Shown: positions 24,047-57,748, counted from the stretch's first letter. The stretch: 64,000 bases of DNA from Candidatus Bathyarchaeota archaeon (GCA_963726255.1 CAVSBL010000002.1:1504001-1568000), one strand, 5' to 3'. Program-made: numbers and translations. Notes: a model not told the origin generated them from the letters alone.

Positions 24047-24076
24047 TGTGTGTTGGTCTAGTGGTGCGCACGCACA
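24047..24076 (-). repeat. Dispersed intergenic repeat, copy A
   Basis: Minus strand TGTGCGTGCGCACCACTAGACCAACACACA. Confidence 0.75.
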
Positions 24077-24136
24077 AATGGAGAGACGAAGGGTAGTTCA
24101 TAGGTTATTCCGCAAAGGAAGTTGAGGCGCTATCTC

Positions 24137-24379
24137 ATGACAGAAAGAGGTAGGCTTAGCGAAGAACAGGAACGGAGGGCTGCGAAAAAGATGGACAGAT
24201 TCTACGAAAGCGTTGGGGTCAGCCACTTGGAGAGGCCAGATGGTTACTGGTTGAAATGCAGAGAGTGCGGAAAGGAATGGGAACATACTAGTGAGATGAC
24301 TCCGCTCTATCATTGGGTATGCCCAAACAAGTGCAACGTGAAGGAAAGGAAGGAACGAGGGAGAATGTTCAGGGCATAA
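24137..24379 (+). CDS. Small zinc-ribbon protein
   Basis: CRECG..W.CPNKC; AAGGAAG upstream. Confidence 0.65.
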   Translation: MTERGRLSEEQERRAAKKMDRFYESVGVSHLERPDGYWLKCRECGKEWEHTSEMTPLYHWVCPNKCNVKERKERGRMFRA

Positions 24380-24410
24380 ACAAAAGCGAGCGGTTCGTAA
24401 AGTGATTTCT

Positions 24411-24486
24411 TGCGTGGGTGCGCGCACCACTATACACAGAAAATTAGATCGATGACGACGGTTCAAATCACGTTGGTCGCACCACC
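24411..24486 (+). repeat. Dispersed intergenic repeat, copy B (composite)
   Basis: GTGGGTGCGCGCACCACTATACACAGAAAATTAGA..GACGACGGTTCAAAT..TCGCACCAC. Confidence 0.75.
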
Positions 24487-24668
24487 ATATCTTTAGCTGC
24501 ACTGAGCATGTTTGCGTTGCACCCGGCCGCTATGCGTTGAAATGTAGCCTATTCACGGGCGAGATGATGCGGTTTCGGCGGTTGAGATAATGCCATCTCG
24601 GCGGTAAGCTGGTCTTTAGCCACCTTTGTAACGGATCGTGTACTGCAAAGTCCCGAGGAGTCTTCTGA

Positions 24669-24704
24669 GCGCACCACTATATCCACACGCACGAAAAGAT
24701 TAGA
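24669..24704 (+). repeat. Dispersed intergenic repeat, copy C
   Basis: GCGCACCACTATATCCACACGCACGAAAAGATTAGA. Confidence 0.7.
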
Positions 24705-24815
24705 GAAACGGCGCACCATCTTGCCGGTCCGGGGTAAGTCAACCGTACGATCAGCGTAGCATGTGTTACGCTCATGATGAAAGAAAGGGGATGTGGGACT
24801 GCGTCCGGAGCGCGC

Positions 24816-25103
24816 TTACTTCTTTTGCAGTCCTTTCTGAAGGTCGCTTAGTTCCATTAGTGGTGTAAGGTCTAGTTTGCAGTTTAAGGTCATCCAGAGT
24901 GGCTCGAAGAATCCTGCTATCATATCGGCGCTTTGTATGTTGACTATCATGTAGATGCCTCTTTCGCCTTCAATTGGCGCAAAGTAGACTGCTTCGGGTT
25001 TGATCTGGTTGAGTAGACCTTCCATTTTCTTTAGAAAGTTAGGATCTTGCAGCAATTTGTTTCCGTGTTCTGTTGGCATATGTAAACGTAATAGGAATTT
25101 CAT
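24816..25103 (-). CDS. DUF3303-like small ferredoxin-fold protein
   Basis: MKFLL....P.E.GN....KPEAVYF....GERG..IVN....EPLW....TPLM. Confidence 0.7.
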   Translation of the reverse strand: MKFLLRLHMPTEHGNKLLQDPNFLKKMEGLLNQIKPEAVYFAPIEGERGIYMIVNIQSADMIAGFFEPLWMTLNCKLDLTPLMELSDLQKGLQKK

Positions 25104-25310
25104 TCAATTTCACCTCCGTGATCTACGAGACCTCGTTCGTGACGCTCGGAAATGACGGATCTAAGGTTACTCCGCGATTCCGCCCGAAAAAGTCGTTCTT
25201 GTTAGAACAATTTTCCAGTTAAGCGGCTTGAACACGATCTTGAGTGAACGAGAGGCCACATCCCTATTATGTCTTCTGAGTTTTTTCACTGCCGGCCTTT
25301 CCAGCTGGTG

Positions 25311-25384
25311 GCGGGTCTAGTGGTGTGTGCGCGCACCACTGACCTGTGTGTGGGCTAGCTGGTGCGGACGAATGATTTTGAACT
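25311..25384. repeat. Dispersed intergenic repeat, locus D (overlapping copies on both strands)
   Basis: Plus strand GTGTGTGCGCGCACCACTGACC; minus strand GTTCAAAATCATTCGTCCGCACCAGCTAGCCCACACACA and GCGCACACACCACTAGACCCGC. Confidence 0.75.
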
Positions 25385-25486
25385 GCAAGGGCGCTTATTC
25401 TAAGATTGGTTTCGAAGCCAAAGCATGATAAAGTCGCAATATGTCGGGAGCGTGAACAAAAGAACCGCAGACAGACGTGAAAAACA

Positions 25487-25963
25487 ATGGGAACAAAGCT
25501 AAGGGCGGGTGACATGGCGCCTGATTTCGGGGGTCAAACATCTAAGGGCACTCGGATTCGTCTCAAAGACCACCTTGGAAAGAAGAACATCGTACTCTAC
25601 TTCTACCCCAAGGATGATACCGAAGATTGCACAATTGAAGCCTGCACTTTCAGAGATAAACTCCAACCCATAGGGGCGCTCTGGACAGAGGTCATAGGCG
25701 TTAGCGTGGATACGGTCGAATCCCACAGGAGATTTGCTGAGAAGAATGGCCTCAATTTCCCATTGGTCAGCGATCATGACAAGCAGATCTCGAAGACCTA
25801 CGGGGTTCTAAGTGAAGATGGTTCGGAAGCAGAAAGAGTCACGTTCATAATTGACAAAGAAGGCAAGATTGCTAAGATCTTTCCGAACGTCGACGTCACA
25901 AGACATGCGAATGACATCATCGATGCACTCAAACAACTTACCTTCCAGAAGACGAAACGCTGA
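25487..25963 (+). CDS. bcp: Peroxiredoxin, BCP/PrxQ family
   Basis: YFYPKDDTEDCTIEAC (PxxxTxxC with resolving Cys), ERVTFIIDKEG. Confidence 0.92.
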   Translation: MGTKLRAGDMAPDFGGQTSKGTRIRLKDHLGKKNIVLYFYPKDDTEDCTIEACTFRDKLQPIGALWTEVIGVSVDTVESHRRFAEKNGLNFPLVSDHDKQISKTYGVLSEDGSEAERVTFIIDKEGKIAKIFPNVDVTRHANDIIDALKQLTFQKTKR

Positions 25964-26064
25964 AAGCACTTGGTTAATACGTAATCATAGAAGGTATGCT
26001 GAATAGAGGATTAAGTTTCAGGGTTCCCTTTTCGAATAGTCGCTGAATGGAAGGGACTGCGGCT

Positions 26065-28593
26065 TTATGCGTTTAACGCGGCGAGCGCCTTCAATGAAAT
26101 AGCCTCAACCTTTCGGTAGATACTCGATTGACTCGCCACCTGTCCCCCAACTTTCAGCAGGTCTTCGACACGGACACCGAATAGTCTTTGGTTTTCCTGA
26201 AGGTACGGTAGGATTACGTTCCAGTCAGTTGCTCCAACGGAAGTTAATTGGCCCCCATTCAGCTGATCTGCGCCAACTTTTCCTGAAGGGTCTCTCACGT
26301 AGATTGCCCCGCCAGAAGCTAAAGAGAAGAGGTTGCTGCCTGGATACGGAGTTTCAAGTTCATAGATTTGGCCGTCATCCCCGAATTTCATTCCATTGAC
26401 GATTATGAATCCGCCTCCGTTGAGGGGGTCGCCGGCCATGAAGGACTCGGCTAGGTAATCGAGGCATGTGCCATTTATGACAACGCGCGGGCGACCGACT
26501 GCATTGATGAGAGGTCTCCCAGCGGCATTTCCTAAGACGTATACGTCGCCGCCTTTTGCGGCGTACATGAACGTCTGCCCAACATCCCCGTAGATAACCA
26601 GTTTTCCGGCCTTCATTATCTGGGCAACTTGGTCCTGCGCTGACGTGTGCACGTAGATTTCGGCCCCATCAAGCCCCGACCCCAAGTAATCTCCTGGGTT
26701 GCCGAACACATCGATTCGAAAACCATCGGAATGCTCACCCAACCCCGCGCCACAGAACCGCTGTCCACGCCAATCAAAAGACAAAACATGCTTCCAATTT
26801 TGTTTGTAGGCAGTTACGATCATGGCTGAAGCTGAACCCTCACCTTCCGCCGCGAAGTCAGCTACGTCAAGCAGCAACGTTTCTTCGCTACCCGTGGGGG
26901 CTCGTAGCTTATGCTTGTTCGTTGAGCTCACTAACACCCAATTCGAGTCATACGTGTCGGAGATCAATGGAAACTTCCGAAGGATTTTGAAAAGCGATGA
27001 TTCCGCGTTTGCCTGTATTTTCCCTTCTTTCGCATATGGAATCAAGTGAAGGTTGTCTAGCAGCCAGGTCAGAAATTCCACAGCTTTCACTTTCTCTCCA
27101 TAACTTCTCTCCGCTGCCTGCTCCAAGTTCGCGCACAGAGCTTCGACGGTCTCTAATCCTGATCGAGCAGCTAACGCTTCTGTGAGAAGTGTTGGAGCCA
27201 GCCTCAAAGTCGCGTCTACGATGTCACGCGCTGGCTTCTTAGCTGGGACGGAAATCTCGACTCCGAATTTGTTAACACATTTCAATTCAGGTGTCCCGGC
27301 TGATCGGTCGACTGTGAAGATGAAGGCGCCGCCGTCTGTGTAGCTTCCCCCTCTCGCGTTCCAGTAGAGGTCAGCTTTGGCCCCGAAACGCGGATCCTCT
27401 GCGGCTAGGCTCTTTAGGCAGGCGTCTATGGCTTGGCGTTCCGAAGCGATTAGACCGATCTTGGCCGCACCGTCCTGTAATGCAAAGACTTGGGGGCGGA
27501 GCATTGACGTGTCGGTTATGCCCAGTAGGTGAAGGGTGCGGCCCGCGTCTTCACTTCGGCCGACTATGAAGAACCATGGCCCGTCTGGTGAGCCATGGAT
27601 GTGTGAAGCCTGAACCTCCCGGTACAGCCGCCGTTTGTCTTCGGGAAGCATGTAGAGGTCACGTTCCGTCGTAGGCGCCATGGCTTCGATCAAGACCTCC
27701 ATCGGGTATCCGTACACCCTTCTCCACAAGTCGAACAGGTAGACCGCGACCTCGGTGTCGGTTAGGAAGAGGGGGTAGATTTTCCGTTGAGCTAGATACT
27801 CTGCGATTGAATGGTAATTCGAAAAGTCCCCGTTGTGCACCAAGGCCTCATGAAGCCCTACGAATGGGTGTGCGCCTCCGGGGTGCCAGACTTTGCCTTT
27901 CGTTGGGTACCGGTGGTGCCCGATCCAAATGTGCGCTTCAAAATCTTCCAGCTTGTAGTAACGTATGACCTGATCTCCCCACCCAACTATCTTCAGAACG
28001 ATCATGTCCTTGCCGTGGGAAAGGACGAAAGCTTTCTTCTCGCCTAGGGACGCGTAGAACTTCTTGTTCAAAGCGTAGCTGTTTTGATAGATGAATTCGT
28101 CCTCGGCAAGTTGACGATCCAGCAGGTCGCTCCGTTGCATGAATTGGCCGAGCACATCTTCCTTCACCCTGCAGAAGTAGCGGCGGACTGCAGGTGGCTT
28201 CACCTGCAAATCGGGGAGGGTTGTGTAGTCGGGTATGGTCTCAAGCCAATTTGCGGCTTCGACGTTGAGAAACGGGTGAATGAATTCCTCTTCAACCGCT
28301 TCACTTGCCGAAGAGTCTAGGTAGGCGATTTGAATTAGGTAATCCTCCTCAAGAATACGCTTAGTTACGCCTAGGCGTTCTGGTGAGAGGCCTAGGGCAG
28401 CTATTCCTCCGCCCTTTCCGTTGCCGCGGTTTTTCATTTGAAGGAGGGCTTGGAGGAAGTGTTTGCCGGCGATGGGTTCTGAGCAGGCGGCGCCGACTAC
28501 GCCGCATCCGCCTTCAGCCTCGACCTTCCGACCGAGGTTCATTCCCTCAACTAGTCTCGACCGGGATTGGATGATGCTCGCAGCTGGATGCAT
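26065..28593 (-). CDS. Glutamate synthase-type subunit: class II glutamine amidotransferase fused to a GXGXG domain
   Basis: GGCGVVG (Ntn Cys), RGNGKGGG, HHRYPT, HNGDF, TDTE; C-terminal GXGXG repeats; probable ATG at 28593. Confidence 0.9.
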   Translation of the reverse strand: MHPAASIIQSRSRLVEGMNLGRKVEAEGGCGVVGAACSEPIAGKHFLQALLQMKNRGNGKGGGIAALGLSPERLGVTKRILEEDYLIQIAYLDSSASEAVEEEFIHPFLNVEAANWLETIPDYTTLPDLQVKPPAVRRYFCRVKEDVLGQFMQRSDLLDRQLAEDEFIYQNSYALNKKFYASLGEKKAFVLSHGKDMIVLKIVGWGDQVIRYYKLEDFEAHIWIGHHRYPTKGKVWHPGGAHPFVGLHEALVHNGDFSNYHSIAEYLAQRKIYPLFLTDTEVAVYLFDLWRRVYGYPMEVLIEAMAPTTERDLYMLPEDKRRLYREVQASHIHGSPDGPWFFIVGRSEDAGRTLHLLGITDTSMLRPQVFALQDGAAKIGLIASERQAIDACLKSLAAEDPRFGAKADLYWNARGGSYTDGGAFIFTVDRSAGTPELKCVNKFGVEISVPAKKPARDIVDATLRLAPTLLTEALAARSGLETVEALCANLEQAAERSYGEKVKAVEFLTWLLDNLHLIPYAKEGKIQANAESSLFKILRKFPLISDTYDSNWVLVSSTNKHKLRAPTGSEETLLLDVADFAAEGEGSASAMIVTAYKQNWKHVLSFDWRGQRFCGAGLGEHSDGFRIDVFGNPGDYLGSGLDGAEIYVHTSAQDQVAQIMKAGKLVIYGDVGQTFMYAAKGGDVYVLGNAAGRPLINAVGRPRVVINGTCLDYLAESFMAGDPLNGGGFIIVNGMKFGDDGQIYELETPYPGSNLFSLASGGAIYVRDPSGKVGADQLNGGQLTSVGATDWNVILPYLQENQRLFGVRVEDLLKVGGQVASQSSIYRKVEAISLKALAALNA

Positions 28594-28598
28594 TTTGT

Positions 28599-29879
28599 TC
28601 ACCTGTAAAGCAAGAGGTCCGTCCTTCCCCTCAATTCCTTGATTGAGCGTAACCCAAGGCTTGCCAAGATTGTTCTCCACTGCTGGGACCATGAAGTGTA
28701 GAGGTTTACGATTCTTTGCGCGCCCCATTGCGGCTCAATGAGCAGAGTGAGCTCAGGGTCGGTTGTTGTGATTCCTACTTGGCATCCCCTTCCACGTTCG
28801 CAGTTGCCGCAATGCGTGCAACCGACTGCCACAGTTTCAGCCGTCCCAATCACGCAGCCGTCCGCTCCGAGGGCAATGGCTTTGGCCACATCGTATGCTG
28901 TTCTAATTCCGCCGCTCGCCATCACCGTGAGCTCGTCCCTTACTCCTTCCGCGACTAGGTAGCGGTGAACCTTCGGAATCGCATACTCTATGGGCATGGC
29001 AATGTTCTTCTTGGCAATCTCTGGTGCCGCGCCCGTCCCCCCGTAGCCCCCATCGAGGTGCAAGATGTTTGCATCTGCGTAGTAGCTACCAATGGCGACC
29101 ATGTCAACATCGGATGGAGTCGAAACCTTCACAGACACCAAACACTTGGGGTTGACAGCACGAATCCAGTCGACATGCTTCTTGTGGTCTTCAACTGAGT
29201 AGACACTGTGAAAGGGAAACGGGGAATAAAGCGAGGTGAAGGGCATTGATTCCCTCATGCTCGCCACTTCTGACGTCACCTTATCAGCGAGCAAGTGGCC
29301 GCCTAAGCCCGGCTTCGCCCCTTGGGCATACTTGAACTCAACAACCCTCGCCGCCTGAATCGTCTCTTCGCGCACCCCGAACATCCCGGTCGCAACCTGC
29401 GTGATCACATAATCCTTGTACTCCATGAGCGGGGGCGGGTAGCCCCCCTCACCCGTGGATGTGAAGGTGCCCAATCGTTTCGCGGCGATAGCCCTAGCGA
29501 GCATAAAGTTGAGGCTAACCGAACCGAACGACATACCGCCGCCGTAGATGGGTATGGGGATTGTAATCTTGGGGCCGAAGTTCCGGCGGTTCAACCCAAT
29601 CGAGAGGTCATAGTCCTCGTCCCCAAGCCCTGAGTGGTTTTTGATGTTCTTGAAGTCTAGTCGATCGAAACCGCCGCCTGATTTCCCTACCTTGTACTCG
29701 AGCTGGCTGGGAGGTTTGCCGGTGGTGGCTTGTTCGTAGGTTGCGAATATCAGCCCCGAGGTCCATCTCTTGTTTCCAAGCCCGCCTGGGATACCGTGTC
29801 TAAGCGTTGGTAGAACGTTGAGCCCGTGGTGGATTAGTTTTGTATGCTTCTGAACGATCATTTCACGTTGCGCGTTCAA
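28599..29879 (-). CDS. Glutamate synthase FMN-binding subunit
   Basis: GMSFGS, TGEGG, QVATGMFGV, QGAKPGLGGHL, GGTGAAP, CTHCGNCERGRGC cluster motif. Confidence 0.92.
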   Translation of the reverse strand: MNAQREMIVQKHTKLIHHGLNVLPTLRHGIPGGLGNKRWTSGLIFATYEQATTGKPPSQLEYKVGKSGGGFDRLDFKNIKNHSGLGDEDYDLSIGLNRRNFGPKITIPIPIYGGGMSFGSVSLNFMLARAIAAKRLGTFTSTGEGGYPPPLMEYKDYVITQVATGMFGVREETIQAARVVEFKYAQGAKPGLGGHLLADKVTSEVASMRESMPFTSLYSPFPFHSVYSVEDHKKHVDWIRAVNPKCLVSVKVSTPSDVDMVAIGSYYADANILHLDGGYGGTGAAPEIAKKNIAMPIEYAIPKVHRYLVAEGVRDELTVMASGGIRTAYDVAKAIALGADGCVIGTAETVAVGCTHCGNCERGRGCQVGITTTDPELTLLIEPQWGAQRIVNLYTSWSQQWRTILASLGLRSIKELRGRTDLLLYR

Positions 29880-31446: not shown

Positions 31447-31492
31447 ATGTACCTCGAATAGGCAGCATTATAGATGAACGCGCATAAAATGG

Positions 31493-31963
31493 GTGTCGAA
31501 GTTGTCTTCTGTTGAACGTTTGCGCATCGATGACGTTGACCGAAAGATATTGAGTGAGCTTCTTCGCGATTGCAGGCGGTCATACCGGTCGCTCGCTCGT
31601 CGGGCCGGTATCTCTGTGGGGACCGTTCTCAGCCGCATTCGCAGACTGGAGAAGGCTGGGATCATCAAAGGCTACTCAGCCCTGCTCGATCATGAAAAGC
31701 TAGGTTACCAGCTCACCGTCATAGCGGAAATCACCGTGTTGAAAGGAAAGTTGCTTGAGATGGAGGAGGCGATTGGGAAACTCTCCAACACTTGCGCCGT
31801 GTATGATGTTACGGGGCTCACGGATGCCCTTGTGATAGCGAAGTTCCATTCTCGAGAAGAACTGAGTAAGTTCACGAAGAACCTTCTGAGCATGCCCTTC
31901 GTGGACCGAACCAACACTCACGTTGTCCTAACGACGATTAAGGAAGATTTACGGCTCCTCTAG
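31493..31963 (+). CDS. Lrp/AsnC transcriptional regulator
   Basis: DDVDRKIL..DCRRSYRSLA..HTH plus RAM domain; divergent from the glutamate synthase cluster. Confidence 0.95.
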   Translation: MSKLSSVERLRIDDVDRKILSELLRDCRRSYRSLARRAGISVGTVLSRIRRLEKAGIIKGYSALLDHEKLGYQLTVIAEITVLKGKLLEMEEAIGKLSNTCAVYDVTGLTDALVIAKFHSREELSKFTKNLLSMPFVDRTNTHVVLTTIKEDLRLL

Positions 31964-31973
31964 CTCCGCCAGG

Positions 31974-32984: not shown

Positions 32985-32991
32985 CGAGCGC

Positions 32992-33663: not shown

Positions 33664-33788
33664 AACCTGACTTTTGTTCCTCGTATCCACAACTAAGGCC
33701 ACCCGAAGAAAGATTCTTGGCATTTAGTATAACTACTGTATAGGCCGCCCGAAGGAGTCTAAATAGGGTACGAGCAGTTGAAAATGTC

Positions 33789-46308: not shown

Positions 46309-46378
46309 TGTGTGTGCGCAGCATCAGAACCAAGCACAGAAGCAACGATTATTAGAATTACGATGCGCGCATACACAA
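46309..46378 (+). repeat. Dispersed intergenic repeat, copy E
   Basis: TGTGTGTGCGCAGCATCAGAACCAAGCACAGA..AATTACGATGCGCGCATACACA. Confidence 0.65.
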
Positions 46379-46454: not shown

Positions 46455-47579
46455 ATGAATTTCTACGTCACATTAACGACGAACTGCAATCTGAGATGCA
46501 AGTACTGTTATGAGAAATCCTGCGAGGATTTCGGAAGCGATTTCCATGGTCTCGCCATAGACTACTCAATTCCCTCTTCTGTAGCGTATGGAATTGACGT
46601 ATTGCGGAATTTTCTGGAACAAGATAATGATCCAGTTGTCATATTCTATGGAGGCGAGCCTCTCCTTCAGATGAAAAGGCTGAAAGAAACGATGGATGCT
46701 GTCCCGAACGCTCACTTCATCATCCAGACCAATGGTCTAATGCTAGATAGATTGGACTCAAACTATCTGAATAGGCTTGAATCGATTTTCGTCTCTCTCG
46801 ATGGTGACGAAGCGTTAACTGACTACTACCGGGGAAGAGGCACATACAGGAGGGTGGAGGATAATGTGAAGAGAGTTCGTGAACTTGGGTTTCGAGGCGA
46901 AATTGTCGCTAGGATGACAGTCGCTGAAGCGACTGAGATTGACACGCAGGTCTTGGCGTTGATCAACAGAGACACGCTGCCGATTTCGTCTGTCCATTGG
47001 CAGTTGGACGCATTGTTCTGGCAGAACGATTATCCGAAACGTCGATTCTTTGAGTGGGCTGGGCAAAGCTACAATCCACGGCTAAGAAAACTGATTTCTG
47101 CTTGGGTCGAACACATGAGAAATGCTGGAGAGGTGTGGCGTCTGTACCCATTCGTTGGGGTCATGCATTCAATGCTTAACGGTGAGTCAAGTCCTCTTCG
47201 ATGCGGAGCCGGATGGTGCGTATTCAACATACAAACCGACGGCAACATTACCCCATGCCCGGTCATGGCGGGCATGAAGGACTTCTACCTAGGCCACATC
47301 AGTAACGCCTCCAGCAAAAGCCTGAAAGATACCGTGTTCGTATCTGAACCATGTACATCATGTAAGTTCATCACAATATGCGGTGGCCGTTGCCTCTACG
47401 CGAATGTTACTCGACTCTGGGGAAATGAAGGATTCAATCAGGTCTGTGGCACGGTCGTAAACATGATAGAAGCACTCTACGATGCGGTCCCACAGATCAA
47501 ATCACTAATAGAAACCGGTAGGGTTCAACTGAAAGACTTCGAGTACCCCAGATACAATGGTTGCGAAATAATTCCTTGA
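46455..47579 (+). CDS. Radical SAM/SPASM protein (AF0577/TIGR04084-like)
   Basis: CNLRCKYC, FYGGEPL, QTNG, RCGAG, TPCP, CTSC....CGGRC SPASM motif, YNGCEIIP. Confidence 0.88.
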   Translation: MNFYVTLTTNCNLRCKYCYEKSCEDFGSDFHGLAIDYSIPSSVAYGIDVLRNFLEQDNDPVVIFYGGEPLLQMKRLKETMDAVPNAHFIIQTNGLMLDRLDSNYLNRLESIFVSLDGDEALTDYYRGRGTYRRVEDNVKRVRELGFRGEIVARMTVAEATEIDTQVLALINRDTLPISSVHWQLDALFWQNDYPKRRFFEWAGQSYNPRLRKLISAWVEHMRNAGEVWRLYPFVGVMHSMLNGESSPLRCGAGWCVFNIQTDGNITPCPVMAGMKDFYLGHISNASSKSLKDTVFVSEPCTSCKFITICGGRCLYANVTRLWGNEGFNQVCGTVVNMIEALYDAVPQIKSLIETGRVQLKDFEYPRYNGCEIIP

Positions 47580-47615
47580 CGTGTTTGATTGTTTCCTTGG
47601 AACTCCCCGACAGTT

Positions 47616-47644
47616 TGTGTGTGTGCGCCAGCATTCCCGCACAA
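47616..47644 (+). repeat. Dispersed intergenic repeat, copy F (degenerate)
   Basis: TGTGTGTGTGCGCCAGCATTCCCGCACAA. Confidence 0.55.
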
Positions 47645-47677
47645 CCAGAAGTTGTCCGCGCAATTCCATAAGCCGCA

Positions 47678-50415: not shown

Positions 50416-50513
50416 GACACCAAGTCAAAAAGTCACACGCAAAACGCAGATTAAAGTCAACCCTTGCAGAAGGCTCTGAGCCGAAGCGTTAGTCGTAAAG
50501 ACGTATAGGACCA

Positions 50514-51884
50514 GTGTTTCAGCAGATGGAACGACGCAACTCGACTGCGCTGGTAATGATCCTAGCTATCCTCATTGCTTTGACGCCAGCCACCAGCATC
50601 CCAATAACTCAAGTATCGGTGTTTGCGGTCCAATCAAACGATCAGTATATTCTCGTCGGAGGCCAGAATGGAACGTGGTTTCGGCCTGGTCAGGCTCCTA
50701 GACTGTACCGAATGTTCCTATCAGATCACTCATTGACCCCGGTAGCTTCTCTTCCAAGTTTTGGCGTAGTATGGACTGGGAGTTGGAATGGTTCGCAATG
50801 GTTGATCTCAGGCTGGGGGATCACTCCCGGCGCGCATGGGTCTAACCCGTATATCTACCTCTATGACGGGCAGAGCCAGATTATGGCAGGAACTCTGTAC
50901 TTGTGGACAGCGCAAGCGTCTTGGCATGGAGGAGACGTATTCGCGGCCAGCTACAATGGTAGCGAATGGTTGCTCTCTGGTCTGGGTAGTGATTGGTTAC
51001 CGTCAGGTTGGGGATCCCCATCAACAGGCAAACCGAGGAATCATATGGCGTTGGCATTGTTCGACGGCTACAACTTCACTGATCTTTCCGCCGATGTACC
51101 CAATCAGTGGGATGCAGTGCTCTTTGCGAACGCTTGGAATGGGCACTATTGGCTCGTGGGTGGGGGATGGCAGGGGAACGAAGGTGTGCTTTATCGCTAT
51201 GACGGAGCCAACTTCACTGACCTCTCATCCCAGCTGGAGTCCGCAATGTGGCAGATGGGTAGGCAGTTTCATTCTGTTCAGGCGATTGAGTGGAACGGCG
51301 ACTACTGGCTCGTTGGCGGAGTAGGTTTCTTAGCGAAGTATGACGGACAGAACTTCACTGACCTCACGCCTGAGCTGAATGCAGCTCTTGACCCCAGACA
51401 CTCTCTGAACTACACATCATGCTGCAACGCTGTGAACGCGTTCGCCTGGGATGGAGTCTCGTGGCAAATAGGGGGAGGTCCCCCTGTAGGCACTCCTGAA
51501 CCGCTCACCGCATGGGCATCATCGTATGACGGTGTAAGATTTACCGACCTCACTTCGCTTATTCCATCCTACATTGCGAGCGCTCCTCACGGTTCGAGTA
51601 TACTCACTATCACCTATGCGAATGGCTCTTGGTTCTTTGGAGGATACGCTAACGACAGAGGCTTCTTGCTCTCCTATGCGAACTCTGCCATGACTGACTT
51701 TTCTGAAATGATCAAAGATACCATGACTGTTGTGAACTGGGTTGGGGGTTGGCCTGAGTCTCGCGAGACTCTGTCGAATCCGATCGGTGCGTTCGGGAAC
51801 TATGTCATTGCGACAATTGCCATCATTATGATTGCAACGGCGTTAGCGATCAGATACAGGAAGCATAACCGCCGAAGAGGTTAA
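50514..51884 (+). CDS. Secreted, membrane-anchored repeat (beta-propeller-like) protein
   Basis: Signal peptide; repeated WNG..WLVGG...L..YDG.NFTDL; C-terminal TM and basic tail. Confidence 0.8.
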   Translation: MFQQMERRNSTALVMILAILIALTPATSIPITQVSVFAVQSNDQYILVGGQNGTWFRPGQAPRLYRMFLSDHSLTPVASLPSFGVVWTGSWNGSQWLISGWGITPGAHGSNPYIYLYDGQSQIMAGTLYLWTAQASWHGGDVFAASYNGSEWLLSGLGSDWLPSGWGSPSTGKPRNHMALALFDGYNFTDLSADVPNQWDAVLFANAWNGHYWLVGGGWQGNEGVLYRYDGANFTDLSSQLESAMWQMGRQFHSVQAIEWNGDYWLVGGVGFLAKYDGQNFTDLTPELNAALDPRHSLNYTSCCNAVNAFAWDGVSWQIGGGPPVGTPEPLTAWASSYDGVRFTDLTSLIPSYIASAPHGSSILTITYANGSWFFGGYANDRGFLLSYANSAMTDFSEMIKDTMTVVNWVGGWPESRETLSNPIGAFGNYVIATIAIIMIATALAIRYRKHNRRRG

Positions 51885-52019
51885 CTTAGCTTCGATCAAG
51901 TTGGGGAATGTTGCCATTGAAGCTTGCCAAGAAACCGTCGAATCCAGACCAGTAGAGCTAGGATGAATTCCATTGTAGTATGTCTCGGTTCAGAGTTCCC
52001 TGCAATAGTCCCATATGCA

Positions 52020-53078
52020 CTACGGGCGTGCTTCAAAGACTCTGTTGAAGGGCGTCTGGGTTGCTCTCCTGAATTGTTTGAAGCCTCCACGGATGGCTAT
52101 TTCCTGCAGTTTCGAATCGCCTGCTTGAGCACCTACTGCGAGCCCTACTTCCTGCGCTAGAGAGGAGGGAACGCAGATCATTGAAGAGGCATTGTAGAAT
52201 ATTCGCCCAACTGGATTGAGGTTCTCTTCCACATGTTCATTTGAGTAGGGCTCAACGATCATCCACGCACCATCCGGCTTTAGCGATTGATGAACGTGCT
52301 TTGCCGCGCCTACAGGATCGCCCATGTCGTGCAGACAATCGAAGAAGGTGACAAGATCGAACTCCTTCCTAGGATAGTCTTTCGCGAGCGCTACCTCGAA
52401 GGTCGTGTTGCGAGATACATTCTCAGTCACTGCAACGTTCCTGGCCCACTCGATTGATTCCAAATGATAGTCGTACCCAATGAAACGCGATTTTGGAAAG
52501 GCTTTTGCCATAATGATCGTAGATGATCCATAGCCGCATCCGACATCTGCGACAAGTGCTCCAGCCTTGAGTTTCTCGACAACGCCCTCAAGGCTTGGAA
52601 GCCAGGAACTAATTAGGTTGGTAAGATAGCTGGGGCGGAAAAATTTGTGCGTGCCTAGGAATAGATCGTTGTGGTGTTCGTGCCAGCCAAGGCCCTTCCC
52701 AGTCCGGAAGGCGTCAGCGAGTTTGCTCCTATCCTTGTAAATTGAGGAGATTATGTAGAAGGCCCCTGGAATGTAGATAGGGCTGTCCTCATTAGCGAGC
52801 GTAAATGCTTGCTCGGACGTCATCATATACTTTCCAGTTGGAGCATCGTAATTCACATAGCCTCCCGCGGCTTGACCAGCGAGCCATTCGCGAATGTAAC
52901 GTTCGGCCGTACTTGTGTTCTTCGCAAGTTCCACCGGCGTCATGGGTCCGTGAGCTGATAATGCCTTGTAAAGCCCTAGTTGCTCGCCGATTAATATCGC
53001 GGGTCCCTGCATGGATGCGCCCAATTCCGTTGCGAACCTTCCTACGATTTCATTCAACTTATCCTGATTAACAGTCAA
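52020..53078 (-). CDS. Class I SAM methyltransferase with N-terminal wHTH (Rv2258c-like)
   Basis: ERYIREWL, ADVGCGYG, DCLHDMGDP, ATQTPFN. Confidence 0.92.
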   Translation of the reverse strand: MTVNQDKLNEIVGRFATELGASMQGPAILIGEQLGLYKALSAHGPMTPVELAKNTSTAERYIREWLAGQAAGGYVNYDAPTGKYMMTSEQAFTLANEDSPIYIPGAFYIISSIYKDRSKLADAFRTGKGLGWHEHHNDLFLGTHKFFRPSYLTNLISSWLPSLEGVVEKLKAGALVADVGCGYGSSTIIMAKAFPKSRFIGYDYHLESIEWARNVAVTENVSRNTTFEVALAKDYPRKEFDLVTFFDCLHDMGDPVGAAKHVHQSLKPDGAWMIVEPYSNEHVEENLNPVGRIFYNASSMICVPSSLAQEVGLAVGAQAGDSKLQEIAIRGGFKQFRRATQTPFNRVFEARP

Positions 53079-53210
53079 AACTTCACGTGTCCTGAAAGGA
53101 TTATGACCTACGTTATATAAAAACGAACGCGCGATGATTCTATGCGTGCTTTTCCACGAAGTGAACGAACCCGTGCGAATCTAAGACCTTCCAATGAAGG
53201 ACAGCGAGGA

Positions 53211-53385
53211 AGCGCATTCGAATTTCATCGGTCGTCGTTCGGTCAATTTCATGTGTGTGTGCGCGCACCAGCACACAAACTATTCCACCCCCTAGGGGGT
53301 ACCAGCAAGCGTGCGCGTCCAATCACAAACCCGGCAGAGTAACATGCTATCCCTACAAAACTATACCACCCCACCCCCGGGGCTA
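53211..53385. repeat. Dispersed intergenic repeat, locus G, plus a local direct repeat
   Basis: Plus strand TGTGTGTGTGCGCGCACCAGCACACAAA; minus strand ACACATGAAATTGACCGAACGACGACC; ACAAACTATTCCACCCCC / ACAAAACTATACCACCCC. Confidence 0.7.
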
Positions 53386-53488
53386 AACTGCTAACTTAAG
53401 GTGGCATCCAGCTCTTCGCACGAGCGAGGGTGAAATGCGGGGCTGGTGAGCTTTAATCTATGAAGCTGAAGAGGGCGATTGGAATTCG

Positions 53489-53743
53489 GTGTTTGTTGTG
53501 AGCCTAATCACGTCCCTGCTAGGAACGGCTGGGCTGTTAATGCTCTTAATCGCATTCGGCCTCAACTCATTCGGAAAACTCAAGCGAACAGATCTGACTT
53601 ACAACCTACTCAACTGCATAGGCGCGTTCGCTTTGGTGGTCTATGCCATAGACCTAAGCGCAACTCTCTTTGTCGTCTTGGAATCGGTTTGGGGCATCGT
53701 CGCCGCCTATCAGATAGCAAACCGCAAAATCACAGCGAACTAG
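53489..53743 (+). CDS. CBU_0592-like small membrane protein
   Basis: G....LIAF..YNLLN.IG..FVVLESVW. Confidence 0.75.
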   Translation: MFVVSLITSLLGTAGLLMLLIAFGLNSFGKLKRTDLTYNLLNCIGAFALVVYAIDLSATLFVVLESVWGIVAAYQIANRKITAN

Positions 53744-53779
53744 GCAAAAAGGCCCACAGTCGCATGCGAGCTGTCAATC

Positions 53780-54280
53780 GTGGTTATGGAATCATTCAGA
53801 ATCAACCGAGATCTGCCTGAGGGAAGGTATCGGCTCCGGGAGGTCTTCTCTGGGCTGGAGGATGTAGAATCCCTCTACGTCTACATAGGCAATCCAACGC
53901 AGTTGAAGCGTATCCTGGACGAGACCGATGTCACCCTCACCCAGGATACTAGTTACATGTACGTTAATGACGGCGACGGCAGCCTCGTAGTGGGTTTGGA
54001 GTATCTGCAAACCGCCGACGCCCATTACCTCTACCTGGACATCATCCACGAACTAGCCCACGTAAAACAATACTTGGACGGCAGGGAACTCTTCGACGAA
54101 AAATACAGCTACGTAGACCGCCCAACAGAGATCGAAGCATACCAATGCACCGTCAAAGAAGCAAGAAAACGCGGCATGGCCGACGACGCGATCACTGAAT
54201 ACCTCTACGTAGAATGGATCACAAGAAAAGAACACGCCAGGCTCCTGAAAACACTAGGAGTAGTTGCTACTCCGCCCTAG
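53780..54280 (+). CDS. Hypothetical zincin-like protein (HELAH)
   Basis: IIHELAHVKQ..YVDRPTEIEAY. Confidence 0.75.
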   Translation: MVMESFRINRDLPEGRYRLREVFSGLEDVESLYVYIGNPTQLKRILDETDVTLTQDTSYMYVNDGDGSLVVGLEYLQTADAHYLYLDIIHELAHVKQYLDGRELFDEKYSYVDRPTEIEAYQCTVKEARKRGMADDAITEYLYVEWITRKEHARLLKTLGVVATPP

Positions 54281-54723
54281 AATTCCTCTTCATTTCGCTT
54301 AGCGGGCTTTTGATATTTGTCTAGGTATTTGAGAACGAAGTTGCGCGTATACTCCTCTAAGTCCAGCTTCAAGGCTTCTTCAGGCTTAACCCAAACATAG
54401 TCTTGCAGTTCACGTCCATCCAACTGTACCTTGAAACTCTTTGTTTTCAGGACGTAGTCCATGAAGATGTAGTGTTCGTGCTTGTGAAAATCTTTCGGGT
54501 AGATTGCCTGCTGAACGACTAGCAGCTCAACGGGCTCGGCGTCCAGACCAGTCTCCTCCTTCACCTCACGCCTAATCGCGTCCTCCGCCCGCTCCCCGAG
54601 CTCGATATGCCCGCCTGGGACGCTGTACTTGTCGCCCCACTTATGCGAGCGAACGATGAGAACCTCGCCCTTCTCGTTCACGATGAGGGCGCCAACTGTA
54701 GCTTCAGGAAAAGTTTGAGTCAA
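54277..54723 (-). CDS. NUDIX hydrolase
   Basis: PGGHIELGERAEDAIRREVKEETGL. Confidence 0.95.
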   Translation of the reverse strand: MTQTFPEATVGALIVNEKGEVLIVRSHKWGDKYSVPGGHIELGERAEDAIRREVKEETGLDAEPVELLVVQQAIYPKDFHKHEHYIFMDYVLKTKSFKVQLDGRELQDYVWVKPEEALKLDLEEYTRNFVLKYLDKYQKPAKRNEEEF

Positions 54724-54766
54724 AGCAACACTTTCTCGGAAAGGAAGCAGCTCTAGCTGTGGGCTT

Positions 54767-54931
54767 CTAGCTCCTGCGCATCATTGTTCCGACGACCCCA
54801 ACGACTGAGATCAGGCCGCCAATGATCAGAATAAGGGGCGCCTGGGTTCTAAGGTAGACTAGGCCCGTGAACACAACCAGCGCCGTAAGGCCTGCCACGT
54901 TTACCATGGCTGCTCTTGCTTGCGGCCTCAA
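54767..54931 (-). CDS. Small 2-TM membrane protein (below the ORF-track cut-off)
   Basis: Manual translation (M)RPQARAAMVNVAGLTALVVFTGLVYLRTQAPLILIIGGLISVVGVVGTMMRRS. Confidence 0.55.
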   Translation of the reverse strand: MRPQARAAMVNVAGLTALVVFTGLVYLRTQAPLILIIGGLISVVGVVGTMMRRS

Positions 54932-55027
54932 GCCCACCCACCACAATCATTCGAGTCACCATAGCCATCTATATTTCTATTCTTCCAAGAGAATCCAATT
55001 AATCCCGCAAGCCGTATCGGGGAAGGG

Positions 55028-55807
55028 GTGGGTGGCGAAGCCGTGGAGGAAGATTCTAAGAAACGGTTCTCAAACCGGGCGACCTACTACGCCCAGTCTC
55101 GTCCCCGCTACCCCAAAGCCATTCTGGCTTTCATGGAAAACGAACTAGGCCTCTCAGAGGCGTCAGTTGTTGCGGATATAGGTTCGGGGACAGGCATTCT
55201 AACTGAGTTATTCCTGAAGCATGGAAACCCGGTTTACAGTGTTGAGCCGAACAGGGAAATGAGGAAAACTGCGGAAGGCCTCCTCAGCCAACACCCAAGC
55301 TTCAGAAGCATAGATGGCACCGCCGAAGCTACAACGCTCCCAGCCGCCAGCGTAGACTTCGTCACCGCGGCACAAGCCTTTCACTGGTTCGACCCATTGA
55401 AGACTCGCGGAGAATTCTTGAGAATTTTGAAACCGCACGGATGGGTTCTTTTGATTTGGAACACCAGGAAGAATTCACCAGGCTTTATGGAGGCTTACGA
55501 GCGGCTGGTCAGTGAATATGCGAACCGGGCACATTCTCGGCGCACTGCGAAAGACAAGGTCGGCGACCAGGCTCTAGCCAGCTTTTTCAGAGAGTACAAG
55601 GTGAAAACCTTCAGCAACAGTCAAGTCCTAGATTTCGAAGACCTGGCGGGACGGTTGCTTTCATCCTCCTATCTTCCGCTCCCCGGTGAAACTAGGTACG
55701 GCTCGATGATGGATGCGCTGCGCAAGCTTTTCGATTCCTACCAAGAAGGCGGGGTTGTTCGCCTCGAGTACGAAACTGAAACATATTACGGCCAACTTAA
55801 GCCCTGA
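55028..55807 (+). CDS. Class I SAM-dependent methyltransferase
   Basis: RFS.RA..Y...RPRYP, ADIGSGTG, AAQAFHWF. Confidence 0.92.
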   Translation: MGGEAVEEDSKKRFSNRATYYAQSRPRYPKAILAFMENELGLSEASVVADIGSGTGILTELFLKHGNPVYSVEPNREMRKTAEGLLSQHPSFRSIDGTAEATTLPAASVDFVTAAQAFHWFDPLKTRGEFLRILKPHGWVLLIWNTRKNSPGFMEAYERLVSEYANRAHSRRTAKDKVGDQALASFFREYKVKTFSNSQVLDFEDLAGRLLSSSYLPLPGETRYGSMMDALRKLFDSYQEGGVVRLEYETETYYGQLKP

Positions 55808-55851
55808 CTAAGGGGCCATTCGCTGGGGCTTCAGCTACGCCAACAATATCT

Positions 55852-57012
55852 TTGAACTCAATTCTGAGCAGGTTCTCCGCGGACGTAGTGAAGATTACCG
55901 AGGAAGTGTACGGCAGCGAAACCCCCACTGTCCTTGAGGCGCTCACGAAACCCGTCGGAACATATTACATCCGCTGCAACACTTCCAAGATCTCACCTGA
56001 GGAACTTCTGAACAGGCTTCAAGGCCGGGGGTTCAACGTATACCAACATCAACTTCTCCCCGAAGCCTTAGGTATTCGAGTTGAGGGCCCGTTTGAGATT
56101 CCACCCGCCGCCCGAAAGGTCGTCGTGGATAAGCATACTGCTGAATCAGTGCTCCAAGGCGCAAATGTTTACGCGCCCGGAATTCTAAACTGCGAGGAAC
56201 TCAGGATCGGGGAGAACGTTGCCGTTGCCTCCGAGCTAGGGGACCACCTTGCAACTGGAACCGCAACCATGAGCGCAAACGATATCCTAACCTTCAGGAA
56301 GGGGTTGGCTGTTCGGGTAAACCACAGGCGGTTCAGGGCACCCCAAGTCAGAGAATTGCCAGAATTTTCAGAAGGGCTCCTCTACCCGCAATCCCTTGCA
56401 GCCATGGCAACAGCCCACACACTTGACCCGCATGGGGGTGAGACCGTCGTTGACATGAACTGCTCCCCAGGCGGAAAACTGTCCCACATTAGCCAGTTGA
56501 TGCACAATTCCGGCAAGATTCTTGGCTTCGATAGGAACACGGAGAAGATAGGGCAGGCTCGCCGGACGTTAATGCGTTTGGGGTGTACGAACGTTACGCT
56601 TTCGATTCATGATACCAGGTACGTCCACCTAGACCTTCCTGACTTGCAGTCCGACCGCACCCTAATCGACCCGCCATGCAGCGCTCTCGGCCTCAGGCCG
56701 AAAGTATATGACTTCTCGACAGTGGACCGCGTGAATAACCTTGCAGATTATCAGAAACAATTCGTCAAGGCCGCAAGCAAAGTGACGAAACCTGGGGGAA
56801 CTATAGTCTACAGCGTCTGCACCTACACAACACAGGAGTGTGAACAAGTCGTCGAGTTCGCCGAGCATGAATGCGGGCTTAGCGTAGTGGAACAGAAACT
56901 AATCCTCGGGTCAAAGGGCCTCGCGGCTCACACGCCATCAGCCAGCCGCTGCCAAAGATTTCATCCTCACGTTGATGAAATCGGATATTTCATCGCAAAA
57001 CTCCAACGGTAG
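55852..57012 (+). CDS. RsmB/NOP-family RNA m5C methyltransferase with PUA domain (NSUN6-like)
   Basis: SVLQGANVYAPG (PUA), DMNCSPGGK, DPPCSALGLRP, YSVCT. Confidence 0.9.
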   Translation: MNSILSRFSADVVKITEEVYGSETPTVLEALTKPVGTYYIRCNTSKISPEELLNRLQGRGFNVYQHQLLPEALGIRVEGPFEIPPAARKVVVDKHTAESVLQGANVYAPGILNCEELRIGENVAVASELGDHLATGTATMSANDILTFRKGLAVRVNHRRFRAPQVRELPEFSEGLLYPQSLAAMATAHTLDPHGGETVVDMNCSPGGKLSHISQLMHNSGKILGFDRNTEKIGQARRTLMRLGCTNVTLSIHDTRYVHLDLPDLQSDRTLIDPPCSALGLRPKVYDFSTVDRVNNLADYQKQFVKAASKVTKPGGTIVYSVCTYTTQECEQVVEFAEHECGLSVVEQKLILGSKGLAAHTPSASRCQRFHPHVDEIGYFIAKLQR

Positions 57013-57062
57013 AAGGAAGCCTTTAACCCCCTTCAAGCCCGAATAACAGTTAGGGACTCTAG

Positions 57063-57353
57063 TTGGATCTGCCCGAGAATGTTTTGACAAAGGGTAAGCG
57101 TGGAAAACTCGAGGTTAGAGCCTTGGACTCACGAGGCAGCTATGTTATGTGCAAGTACCTTGACCCGAAGACGATGAAACCTGCGAACACGAAACGCAAA
57201 CTGATGCTTAGGGATCAGAGCGGAAACGTGCTTGAATATTTCATCATCCCGCTGAAGGACACAAAGCGTGCACTCCTCCTTACCGCGGCGTCCGAAGAGA
57301 AGGAACGTAAGGTTTGGCTTGAAAGCCTAGGAAGAGCTGAAGAAATCTGGTGA
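57063..57353 (+). CDS. Conserved-looking archaeal hypothetical protein
   Basis: KGKRGKLEVR..YLDPKT..EYFIIP. Confidence 0.7.
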   Translation: MDLPENVLTKGKRGKLEVRALDSRGSYVMCKYLDPKTMKPANTKRKLMLRDQSGNVLEYFIIPLKDTKRALLLTAASEEKERKVWLESLGRAEEIW

Positions 57354-57371
57354 CGTTAAATGGCTACGGTG

Positions 57372-57468
57372 GCGCGGACATGCACACAAAAATACGTCGG
57401 TTCAAATTCCGACGCTCGCAACATTAGACCCACACACACTTGCAGACGACCAACAACGACGGTTCAGA
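57372..57468 (+). repeat. Dispersed intergenic repeat, locus H (composite)
   Basis: ACGTCGGTTCAAATTCCGACGCTCGCAACATTAGACCCACACACAC..ACGACGGTTCAGA. Confidence 0.78.
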
Positions 57469-57530
57469 GAAACTCCAGTCCAGGAGACGACTCCACCGAC
57501 GCCTTATATCGGCCCAAGCGTTAGTGAAAA

Positions 57531-57671
57531 ATGATAGTGATGAAATGGTTCTGGGGTTTCATGGGATGTCTAGGGTTCCTAGGCCTCGCACTGAATGATC
57601 CTCTCTACTACGCTTTCTTTGCTTTTTTCCTTTTCTTCCTCGAACCTGTTCTAAAGAAACCCAAACGGTAA
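57531..57671 (+). CDS. Small Phe-rich 2-TM protein (46 aa; below the ORF-track cut-off)
   Basis: MIVMKWFWGFMGCLGFLGLALNDPLYYAFFAFFLFFLEPVLKKPKR; TTATAT box about 25 bp upstream. Confidence 0.65.
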   Translation: MIVMKWFWGFMGCLGFLGLALNDPLYYAFFAFFLFFLEPVLKKPKR

Positions 57672-57710
57672 GAAACACCTAAGTCGTCAAGACAAACCTG
57701 CTGGCATTCG

Positions 57711-57748
57711 GTGTGTGTGCGCAACATTAGACCCACAAACACGAAAAT
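57711..57748 (+). repeat. Dispersed intergenic repeat, copy I
   Basis: GTGTGTGTGCGCAACATTAGACCCACAAACACGAAAA; shares an exact 18-mer with locus H. Confidence 0.8.

Follow-up and report, generated by a model that had tools for sequence, protein, structure and literature searches.

Dispersed intergenic repeats of a Bathyarchaeia lineage as candidate attachment sites bounding small integrase-less gene cassettes

A 64,000-nucleotide (nt) stretch from Candidatus Bathyarchaeota archaeon (GCA_963726255.1 CAVSBL010000002.1:1504001-1568000), here called the window, carries between positions 24,047 and 57,748 a family of short, dispersed repeats with partly self-complementary ends. We put at slightly better than even odds (about 0.55) the reading that these repeats are attachment (att) sites of a site-specific system, most likely that of a tyrosine integrase, belonging to one Bathyarchaeia lineage; its ancestral target would be the 3' end of a transfer RNA (tRNA) gene, and its integrase-less cassettes would be mobilized in trans. 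The evidence includes a 752-bp insertion joined to the base at one such site, changes of gene content at the sites between close relatives, and the tRNA-like geometry of one of the two site forms. The genome analyzed (G000), a member of the Bathyarchaeia, has 2.42 Mb in five contigs, with 51% GC and 98.5% completeness, and the window corresponds to G000:C2:1504001-1568000.

Two site forms with a common right part

The original prediction named nine loci in the window, each of which was read or found again with the content described. An alignment of genome-wide copies revealed that the two modules it had distinguished carry one common right part, (G)CGCACCA-NN-AGACC-CACACAC. The block (G)CGCACCA, here called the crossover block, is common to the sites, and NN-AGACC-CACACAC forms their right arm. 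The two forms differ in the left arm, which is GTGTGTG(TG) in the "core" form and (ACGACG)GTTCAAAT followed by exactly nine bases in the "mod2" form. The second module had thus been seen correctly as ACGNCGGTTCAAAT-N9-CGCA, present at 24454-24491, 57394-57439, and, inverted, 25346-25385, while its tRNA T-loop-to-CCA geometry had been overlooked. Conservation in 79 mod2 copies from metagenomes spans ACGACG through CACACACACA-AAAA, and the nine "variable" bases have the consensus TCCGATGCC. Aligned copies have only the 30- to 70-nt site in common, with unrelated flanks; what is conserved, across two genera, is sequence and not structure. Copies had also been said to overlap back to back at two places. 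The overlap at 25305-25385 is real on reading; at 53211-53280 the core is present, preceded not by an overlapping copy but just by an inverted CGTCGT arm.

Matches to GTGTGTGCGC with at most one mismatch numbered 18 in the window, compared with a mean of 3.46 and a maximum of 7 in 100 shuffles. A scan for the shared right part (CGCACCANNAGACCCACACAC, 19 bases, i.e., CGCACCA-NN-AGACC-CACACAC) gave 8 sites in the window at a cutoff of at least 14/19 (2.15 in shuffles) and 71 sites on the main contig at the genome-wide cutoff of at least 15/19 (4.0 in shuffled sequence). The concerns that copies might be no commoner than in shuffled DNA, or might be low-complexity (TG)n artifacts, are therefore answered: the center GCGCACCA-NN-AGACC is not of low complexity, and a reversed-pattern control had zero matches in 61 genomes. 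By left flank, the 71 sites comprised 21 core, 25 mod2, and 25 other sites; about 0.5 T-loop boxes at the mod2 offset would be expected by chance (calculated).

The repeats had been likened to repetitive extragenic palindromic (REP) elements and to integron attC sites. If they were REP-like or IS200/IS605-like elements, or attC-like sites, folded single strands would be cut by an HUH (Y1) nuclease or recombined as such. The self-complementary GTGTGTG...CACACAC ends agree with this, as do two of five cores that folded (as DNA) somewhat better than shuffles (z = -1.99 and -1.12). The other three folded no better (z = -0.14, +0.30, and +0.73), and the conserved center is asymmetric and kept in sequence, unlike that of attC. 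G000 has no IntI or other tyrosine recombinase and no Y1 transposase (PF01797, no match at E up to 1). Since the arms never vary, covariation cannot be shown. Neither likeness, to HUH substrates or to folded attC sites, survived these results, and we find this reading scarcely credible.

A base-exact insertion at a protein gene end

The 752-bp segment at 57377-58128 is found only in G000; the relatives G021, G015, and G014 have an empty site. On the minus strand, with junctions marked by a slash, the empty site reads GATTCAAATTCTACCGGT/CGCGCCACCGTAGCC in G021, with relatives of this sequence in G015 and G014, and the filled allele reads ...CCGGT/CGCTCCACCCTAGTGACC...752 bp...GTGTGCATGTC/CGCGCCACCGTAGCC. 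The left junction of the filled allele is thus the incoming CGCTCCACCCTAGTGACC and the right one is GTGTGCATGTC/CGCGCCACCGTAGCC. Joining the two ends of the insert recreates a core-type site, so the incoming DNA, if circular, bore such a site. Incoming DNA and target have about 12 matching bases and are joined exactly at CGC.CCA. The 13-nt likeness at the insertion ends is one of site to site (11/13 bases), not an exact duplication.

The empty site consists of the last codons of a phosphoribosyltransferase gene (58116-58862, minus strand). The last nine codons double as a T-loop-type site, and the cassette brings synonymous codons and a TAG stop, leaving the last 19 residues and the stop codon identical in the empty and filled alleles. 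This repair resembles the restoration of tRNA genes by att sites; conservative insertion at the site, with empty and filled alleles and a restored target gene end, is a feature of att sites of tRNA-targeting tyrosine integrases and was observed here.

The insertion is polymorphic in nature. The empty join (57373 to 58126) occurs in contigs of metagenome runs X2 (from the study of the best holder, X1) and X5 (from another study, of peat), a similar join occurs in run X4, and run X1 has the filled form. No RNA library was among the 20 runs listed. No donor of the insert was found in 40 other genomes of the family, in which the 34- to 55-nt site was the sole match. In G019, the T-loop-like codons at the target are not conserved, and the position has no site.

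Gene content breakpoints at the sites

Breakpoints of gene content coincide with sites elsewhere in the window. Over the 24 kb compared with G021, the closest relative compared (94 to 97% identical), 8 of 12 homology-block ends fell inside a site of either genome or no more than 50 nt away from one (24468, 24669, 25304, 25345, 26048/26053, 53266, 57376, and 58128), while sites make up about 2% of this DNA. Together with the base-exact empty site and its polymorphism in metagenomes, this bears out the suggestion of a recombination-site family.

The cassette at 24669-25304 lies on another contig and in another context in G021, where homology begins exactly at GCGCACCA and the DNA to the left is unrelated. 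At 53266, homology stops directly after GTGTGTGCGCGCACCA; beyond this point G021 has a tail, two mod2 units, and 5.1 kb of extra DNA with four cargo genes (encoding DUF1028, a solute-binding protein, a polyketide-cyclase-like protein, and a methyltransferase). In runs X4 and X5, contigs break or switch exactly at 46324, just past CGCAGCA, and metagenome contigs also do so around 53253-53271.

The sites and cassettes of the window are the following.

24048-24077, minus strand: core-type site with left arm TTGTGCGTG, CGCACCA, and tail CTAGACCAACACAC (18/19)
24122-24379, plus strand: cassette open reading frame (ORF) of 85 amino acids (aa) between two sites, no Pfam family
24412-24443, plus strand: core-type site with degenerate tail (14/19), conserved in G021:C8
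24454-24491, plus strand: T-loop-type (mod2) site, GACGACGGTTCAAAT-N9-CGCACCA; G021:C8 homology ends just past TTCAAAT (24468)
24669-25304, plus strand: one-gene cassette beginning at site GCGCACCACTATATCCACACGC, with a 95-aa ORF at 24816-25103 on the minus strand
24670-24690, plus strand: right-part site at the cassette start (scan at 14/19 or more)
25305-25345, no single strand: partial sites that overlap back to back, with an inverted tail (25307-25327, minus strand) and forward GTGTGTGCGCGCACCACTGACC
25346-25385, minus strand: inverted T-loop-type site, GTTCAAAA-N9-CGCACCAGCTAGCCCACACAC (16/19); G021:C8 homology resumes at its outer edge
46310-46337, plus strand: core-type site upstream of the radical-SAM cassette gene at 46455-47579
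47617-47645, plus strand: left arm plus GCGCC-AGCA with degenerate tail, at the far end of the radical-SAM cassette
53253-53270, plus strand: left arm plus GCGCGCACCA, no tail; G021 homology stops right after CCA (53266)
57362-57376, minus strand: displaced right part of the chromosomal target site, CGCGCCACCGTAGCC
57377-58128, no strand assigned: 752-bp integrase-less insertion with a T-loop-type site, a 46-aa ORF, a core-type site, and a KaiC-like C-terminal fragment
57394-57439, plus strand: T-loop-type site within the insertion (18/19), with the rare variant CGCAACATTAGACC
57711-57741, plus strand: core-type site within the insertion (17/19), also with the rare variant CGCAACATTAGACC
58106-58150, minus strand: hybrid junction, with T-loop-like arm GATTCAAATCCTACCGGT in the last codons of the phosphoribosyltransferase gene joined to incoming CGCTCCACCCTAGTGACC

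At 47617-47645 and 53253-53270, the left arm and (G)CGC(G)C(A)CCA remain, and the right part is degenerate.

Other repeats and differences were seen in the same region. Two att-type sites enclose a separate repeat of about 70 nt at 24510-24579, which contains a GATGATG...TGAGA stretch; at least five further copies occur in G000 (C2:2076524, 458606, 1181359, 998134, and 1671695; 84 to 95% identical), and there are copies in relatives. One copy falls inside an ARAGORN call of a tRNA-Ala with a 1,115-nt intron. The sequence CCACCCCCTAGGGGGTACCAGCAAGCGTGCGCG (window 53280-53330) resembles CCGCCCCTCTAGGGGTACCTCCAAGCGTGCGCGCACC near G000:C2:~196016 and may be another small repeat or RNA element. A 1.5-kb segment at 50431-51932, absent from G021 and from a contig of run X2, holds one 456-aa ORF of no Pfam family; it has no att-type site, and CCAAG..AAA microhomology is present at its flanks.

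The link to tRNA genes

Twenty-five of the 71 sites have GGTTCAAAT followed by nine bases and CGC-A-CCA. This mod2 spacing is T-loop + 5 + 7 + A + CCA, which by our own reading corresponds to tRNA positions 54 to 60, 61 to 65, 66 to 69, CGC (70 to 72), discriminator A, and CCA. The form thus copies the 3' part of a tRNA, as att sites do, and the consensus of its nine bases resembles CCCGGCGGC of a real tRNA. The T-loop-to-CCA geometry would tie the family to tRNA-targeting integrases and not to an unprecedented element.

Such sites also follow real tRNAs. Metagenome locus L164 carries a full intron-bearing tRNA (Rfam RF00005, 38.8 bits, above the gathering score) ending in GGGTTCAAATCCCGGCGGCCGCA-CCA, with a mod2 site 40 nt downstream of its end. 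Locus L124 is arranged alike, and in L105 the site tail comes directly after the same tRNA 3' end. The 3' end of the L164 tRNA is that of the G000 tRNA called Gln(CTG) by ARAGORN, whereas among real G000 tRNAs the one matching the site profile best overall is tRNA-Ser(GCT), with a trailer similar to the tail, so that no single ancestral tRNA is indicated. In the relative G011, an integrase lies beside a real tRNA ending in CCCCGCACCA.

Judged by their sequence, none of the units is, in functional terms, part of a tRNA. Pairing in the T stem averaged 2.33/5 in 79 copies versus 4.93/5 in 28 real G000 tRNAs. ARAGORN found no tRNA and Rfam no match at the gathering score in the window, and two module-bearing stretches did not match the Rfam tRNA model even at E up to 10. 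A tRNA gene, a tRNA-like RNA, and split or permuted tRNA halves were ruled out as candidates by these covariance-model and stem tests. One could still see in the many short dispersed copies a set of non-autonomous transposons (miniature inverted-repeat transposable elements [MITEs]) or, given the T-loop box and CCA, tRNA-like RNAs, for instance the halves of split tRNAs or processing signals. The tests above speak against the second, and the first is contradicted by the lack of a uniform unit length, of terminal inverted repeats, and of an exact target duplication; the proposed likeness to MITEs was not borne out, and we rate both possibilities as very improbable.

As a side observation, ARAGORN called 35 tRNAs in G000, nearly all with introns; seven calls exceed 300 nt, with "introns" of about 0.6 to 2.8 kb, and are doubtful.

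Distribution in the genome and across taxa

The sites are restricted to intergenic DNA and to two genera. ORFs of at least 75 aa cover about 87% of the DNA, yet 45 of the 54 sites scoring at least 16 lie outside them, in agreement with the intergenic placement predicted for the family, and the same holds for 31 of 41 profile matches (ORF coverage, 85 to 87% of the genome). Gaps between sites are irregular, from 50 nt to several kb, and both strands are used, so the family is not a CRISPR array, as had been stated. The sites are clustered: 34 gaps were shorter than 3 kb, compared with 6.0 expected and at most 15 in 2,000 trials, and G000 has 29 clusters or singletons. Orientation to neighboring genes is not fixed (27 to 18 and 25 to 20 for the genes upstream and downstream, respectively), and that of neighboring sites is mixed, both in G000 (18 same, 12 opposite) and in metagenome loci (63 same, 39 opposite). 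Among the 18 same-orientation neighbor pairs of G000, mod2 was upstream in 12, and the order core then mod2 occurred in none.

The 80 metagenome loci contained 182 sites in 239 kb, with gaps in two groups, of 37 to 88 nt and of about 0.46 to 2.4 kb. An inverted core abutted a mod2 unit in 16 of them (by eye), and the mod2 form was present in at least 122 metagenome stretches. Contig C10 of G019 has nine sites in 8 kb, with a run of core sites. The motif was present in 20 of 22 genomes of one genus (g1) and in all five of another (g5); it was missing from three further genera of the family (g2 to g4; 9 genomes in all) and from each of the 24 genomes taken from other families. A search of 185,579 species genomes gave 53 exact matches to the core, of which 46 were labeled Bathyarchaeota or Bathyarchaeia, 4 were labeled "archaeon RBG_16_50_20", and 3 were bacterial, the last on short contigs of bacterial bins.

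Proposed mechanism

The ancestral system would have targeted the 3' end of a tRNA gene, the (G)CGCACCA block corresponding to the acceptor end, discriminator A, and CCA. The left arm is GTGTGTG(TG) in core sites; that of mod2 sites, GGTTCAAAT-N9, would be what decay has left of a tRNA T-loop segment. Sites would be interchangeable, any pair being able to recombine, with crossover in or at GCGCACCA; the exact position inside it is an inference. Small integrase-less segments of about 0.5 to 2.4 kb, often with one gene, would be inserted, excised, inverted, and moved between sites, probably through a circular form, giving integron-like cassette clusters of mixed orientation at about 29 chromosomal places. 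Tandem insertions would lead to the runs of core sites, the mod2-then-core order, and the inverted core abutting mod2. The enzyme, presumably a tyrosine integrase, would come in trans from integrative viruses or elements of the population, there being none in G000.

Search for a recombinase and rival readings

A site stands beside an integrase on one viral contig. IMGVR_UViG_3300035179_000013 (IMG/VR, 51.7 kb, GC 0.517) carries a mod2 site matching at 19/19; over 39 to 48 nt, this site is 85 to 90% identical to five copies from G000. It precedes by about 250 nt the gene of a 363-aa tyrosine recombinase (PF00589, E = 3.5e-9) that has a zinc ribbon at its C terminus; a KaiC-like ORF at the end of the contig lies 247 nt from the site. 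Among solved structures, the nearest to this recombinase is 4a8e, which was deposited under the name of a probable XerC-like tyrosine recombinase and which we take to be Pyrococcus abyssi XerA. A second viral contig, with a 49% identical integrase, had no site in the 180 nt upstream. Searches of viral contigs with core patterns gave no match for one pattern and, for another, a single match in a giant-virus metagenome-assembled genome (MAG), which lacks the CACACAC arm and was taken as chance.

A number of results weigh against an integrase acting at these sites. G000 has no match to PF00589 (tyrosine), PF16795 (SSV-type), PF00239 (serine), PF01797 (Y1), or PF01867 (Cas1), so that the earlier statement that the window has no integrase or transposase holds and extends, for these five recombinase families, to the whole genome. 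A clade-specific profile built from 40 integrase ORFs of relatives detected only relics in G000, most matches being zinc ribbons. The motif-bearing genomes G006, G007, G012, G029, and G036 have no PF00589 match either. Tyrosine recombinases occur erratically in relatives (0 to 12 per genome), in motif-free genera too, and PF00589 does not track the motif, since all five g2 and all three g3 genomes have integrases without it. Recognizable sites were present at 2 of 18 integrase loci of relatives (L054 and L056) and, at 15/19 or more, at none of 14 loci of viral-integrase homologs; none of the 80 metagenome site loci had such a homolog. This leaves a single viral contig, 58% complete and with one site only, to support the link to an integrase. 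Clusters are not enriched near tRNA genes (4 of 29, compared with 2.13 expected, a number reached in 295 of 2,000 rotations). Cores of tyrosine recombinase sites usually have 6 to 8 bp between the arms, and the GTGTGTG and CACACAC arms are 14 to 16 bp apart here. The moved cassette (24669-25304) has a site at just one end in G021. Four of the 12 block ends (46105, with no site there, 50431, 51932, and 53432) have no site, and homology breaks at four positions (after TTCAAAT, 5' of GCGC, 3' of CCA, and after CACACAC), so that homologous exchange between repeats fits as well as one fixed crossover.

Homologous exchange at otherwise-conserved repeats is the main rival. The repeats would be kept for another function, as protein-binding boundaries or for termination or regulation, and homologous recombination would use them as short identity patches, with no dedicated recombinase. 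The absence of a recognizable recombinase from G000, homology breaks at several positions in a conserved unit of 50 to 70 nt, the mixed orientation of cluster sites, and the conservation across two genera all agree with this. The lack of a fixed orientation or distance to flanking genes, however, makes a promoter or terminator role unlikely, and that version was ruled out on these grounds. The 752-bp insertion joined DNA with just about 12 bases matching the target, exactly at CGC.CCA; a genuine copy stands beside an integrase on the viral contig; and the tRNA-end geometry is typical of att sites. On these grounds we consider the rival unlikely.

A true integron analog could instead have a resident recombinase that goes unrecognized, from a new enzyme family of the two site-bearing genera. 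Such an enzyme would account for abundant sites in six genomes with no PF00589 match (G000 and the five named above) and for a recent insertion in this lineage, and many ORFs near clusters have no Pfam family. No unknown gene recurs at the clusters, though: among 173 neighboring ORFs, the only family of four was KaiC-like and resembles cargo. We regard this alternative, too, as unlikely.

When 191 ORFs in the window and near clusters were compared with Pfam, neither a recombinase nor a mobility gene was detected. Among the cargo are GNAT, SnoaL, cupin, and glyoxalase proteins, hydrolases, MFS transporters, methyltransferases, restriction-modification, PIN/MazE, AbiV, and KaiC-like proteins. 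KaiC-like ATPases were examined as a mobility gene and are treated as cargo, since about 5 of 11 paralogs are near sites, one of them a cassette fragment. In about 5 of the 11 in the genome, a same-strand site lies 12 to 51 nt behind the gene (G000:C2:1249289-1250113, 1774623-1775372, 1839934-1840707, and 923636-924151, and window 57715-58005); the copy at window 57715-58005 is the C-terminal fragment inside the 752-bp insertion. Three paralogs of the TATA-binding protein each stand at the edge of a site cluster (L013:1096-1662, L015:918-1511, and L022:1698-2372).

The integrase relics are two. A 97-aa N-terminal fragment of no Pfam family lies directly after tRNA-Ala(GGC) (G000:C2:145895 onward, L212). 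A 368-aa ORF, also of no Pfam family, has an integrase-like N-terminal half (C2:265652-266761, minus strand; L210:3652-4761); a 115-aa ORF at C2:498079 has a copy of its final 90 residues. A weak PF00239 match (E = 0.012) was a false lead, lying among primase- and GINS-like housekeeping ORFs (by eye).

Two other arrangements were noted. Locus L055 (G013:C16:1-15000) has six tyrosine-recombinase ORFs within 13 kb and no att-type site among them, possibly an arrangement like a recombinase-in-trio or a shufflon. In L017 (G000:C2:895001-915000), an ammonium transporter gene is split between 8019-9029 (N-terminal part, minus strand) and 14267-14635 (C-terminal part, plus strand), with about 5 kb between the halves encoding a dCTP deaminase, two DNA methylases, and a DpnII-like endonuclease. 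A restriction-modification unit seems to have inserted here or to have caused an inversion; the junctions (C2:903-909 kb) have no att-type site.

Comparison with known systems

Integrons, and attC clusters without integrase (CALINs), are also reported from archaeal MAGs; the published archaeal integrons have IntI and structure-defined attC sites, and the main text of that report mentions neither tRNA nor Bathyarchaeia (10.1101/2022.02.06.479319). By that account, the present clusters are like integrons and CALINs in being arrays of mostly single-gene recombinase-less cassettes, each bounded by sites, with most arrays lacking the enzyme (10.1101/2022.02.06.479319). They also have two kinds of site in platform-like and cassette-like roles, cassette-size spacing, and accessory cargo (GNAT, glyoxalase, cupin, SnoaL, and hydrolases). 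Unlike those of integrons, the sites here are conserved in sequence, derived from tRNA 3' ends, and devoid of an attC-type fold; their orientation is mixed, not uniform, and their clusters are dispersed at about 29 loci. An IntI (PF00589 with the IntI-specific domain) beside attI is lacking, as the whole genome has no PF00589 match.

Among tRNA-targeting elements, the tycheposon islands of Prochlorococcus are described as having partial-tRNA repeats between cargo, with most island DNA integrase-less (10.1101/2020.12.28.424599), and the archaeal integrases offer a further comparison (reviewed in PMC8371274). As in such elements, the sites reproduce the 3' portion of a tRNA gene, partial tRNA copies lie between cargo, and the 3' end of the target gene is restored. 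As far as these descriptions go, the present sites differ in lying away from tRNA genes (25 of 29 clusters), in having no foldable T-arm and a second, non-tRNA left arm (GTGTGTG), and in occurring once in the last codons of a protein gene; the units are also tiny (0.5 to 2.4 kb) and lack an integrase.

The dif (pdif) modules of Acinetobacter plasmids are gene modules between short recombinase sites, in either orientation, shuffled among replicons (PMC6449649). They resemble the present cassettes in being moved by an enzyme encoded elsewhere; their Xer sites are served by the host XerC/XerD (PMC6449649), whereas here no Xer-type gene was found, the site architecture is another, and the modules are chromosomal. 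REP elements with their REP-associated tyrosine transposase (RAYT; Y1/HUH) are likewise short, intergenic, partly palindromic, dispersed, and clustered, and differ from the present repeats, which have no Y1 gene, a weak fold, an asymmetric center, and gene content switching at the sites. A dif/Xer site has 28 bp, with two 11-bp Xer-binding arms and a 6-bp spacer. By our own reading, the present site can be read as 12 + 6 + 12 (GTGTGTGTGCGC-ACCAYT-AGACCCACACAC), with 8/12 symmetric bases.

Cassettes bounded by att sites are thus already known. What is unusual here is the dispersed non-tRNA platforms, the very small enzyme-less units, the repair of a protein gene end, and the lack of a recombinase in the host genome. 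No description of tRNA-tail-derived cassette sites in archaea was found in the limited collection of literature searched. We advance tentatively, as a possibility rather than an expectation, that this is an independent archaeal counterpart of integrons: single-gene enzyme-less cassettes with the site GTGTGTG-CGCACCA-NNAGACC-CACACAC would be captured at dispersed platforms derived from tRNA tails, some in the last codons of housekeeping genes that the incoming site repairs, by a recombinase (XerA-like with a zinc ribbon, or not yet recognized) borrowed from passing viruses.

Implications

Bathyarchaeia are among the most abundant uncultured archaea of sediments and peat, and their gene gain and loss are poorly known. 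The sites mark to the base the turnover of gene content between strains otherwise 95 to 99% identical and therefore offer a handle for mapping accessory genomes in metagenomes. They also explain assembly breaks in these organisms, 28 of the 80 metagenome matches lying within 300 nt of a locus end (contig end or retrieval edge). A core site together with a T-loop-type site gives a small pair of testable substrates with which to look for the enzyme. If the cassettes are truly self-moving, they would represent a second, independently evolved cassette-capture system beside integrons, and the compact, sequence-defined site might serve as a recombination tool.

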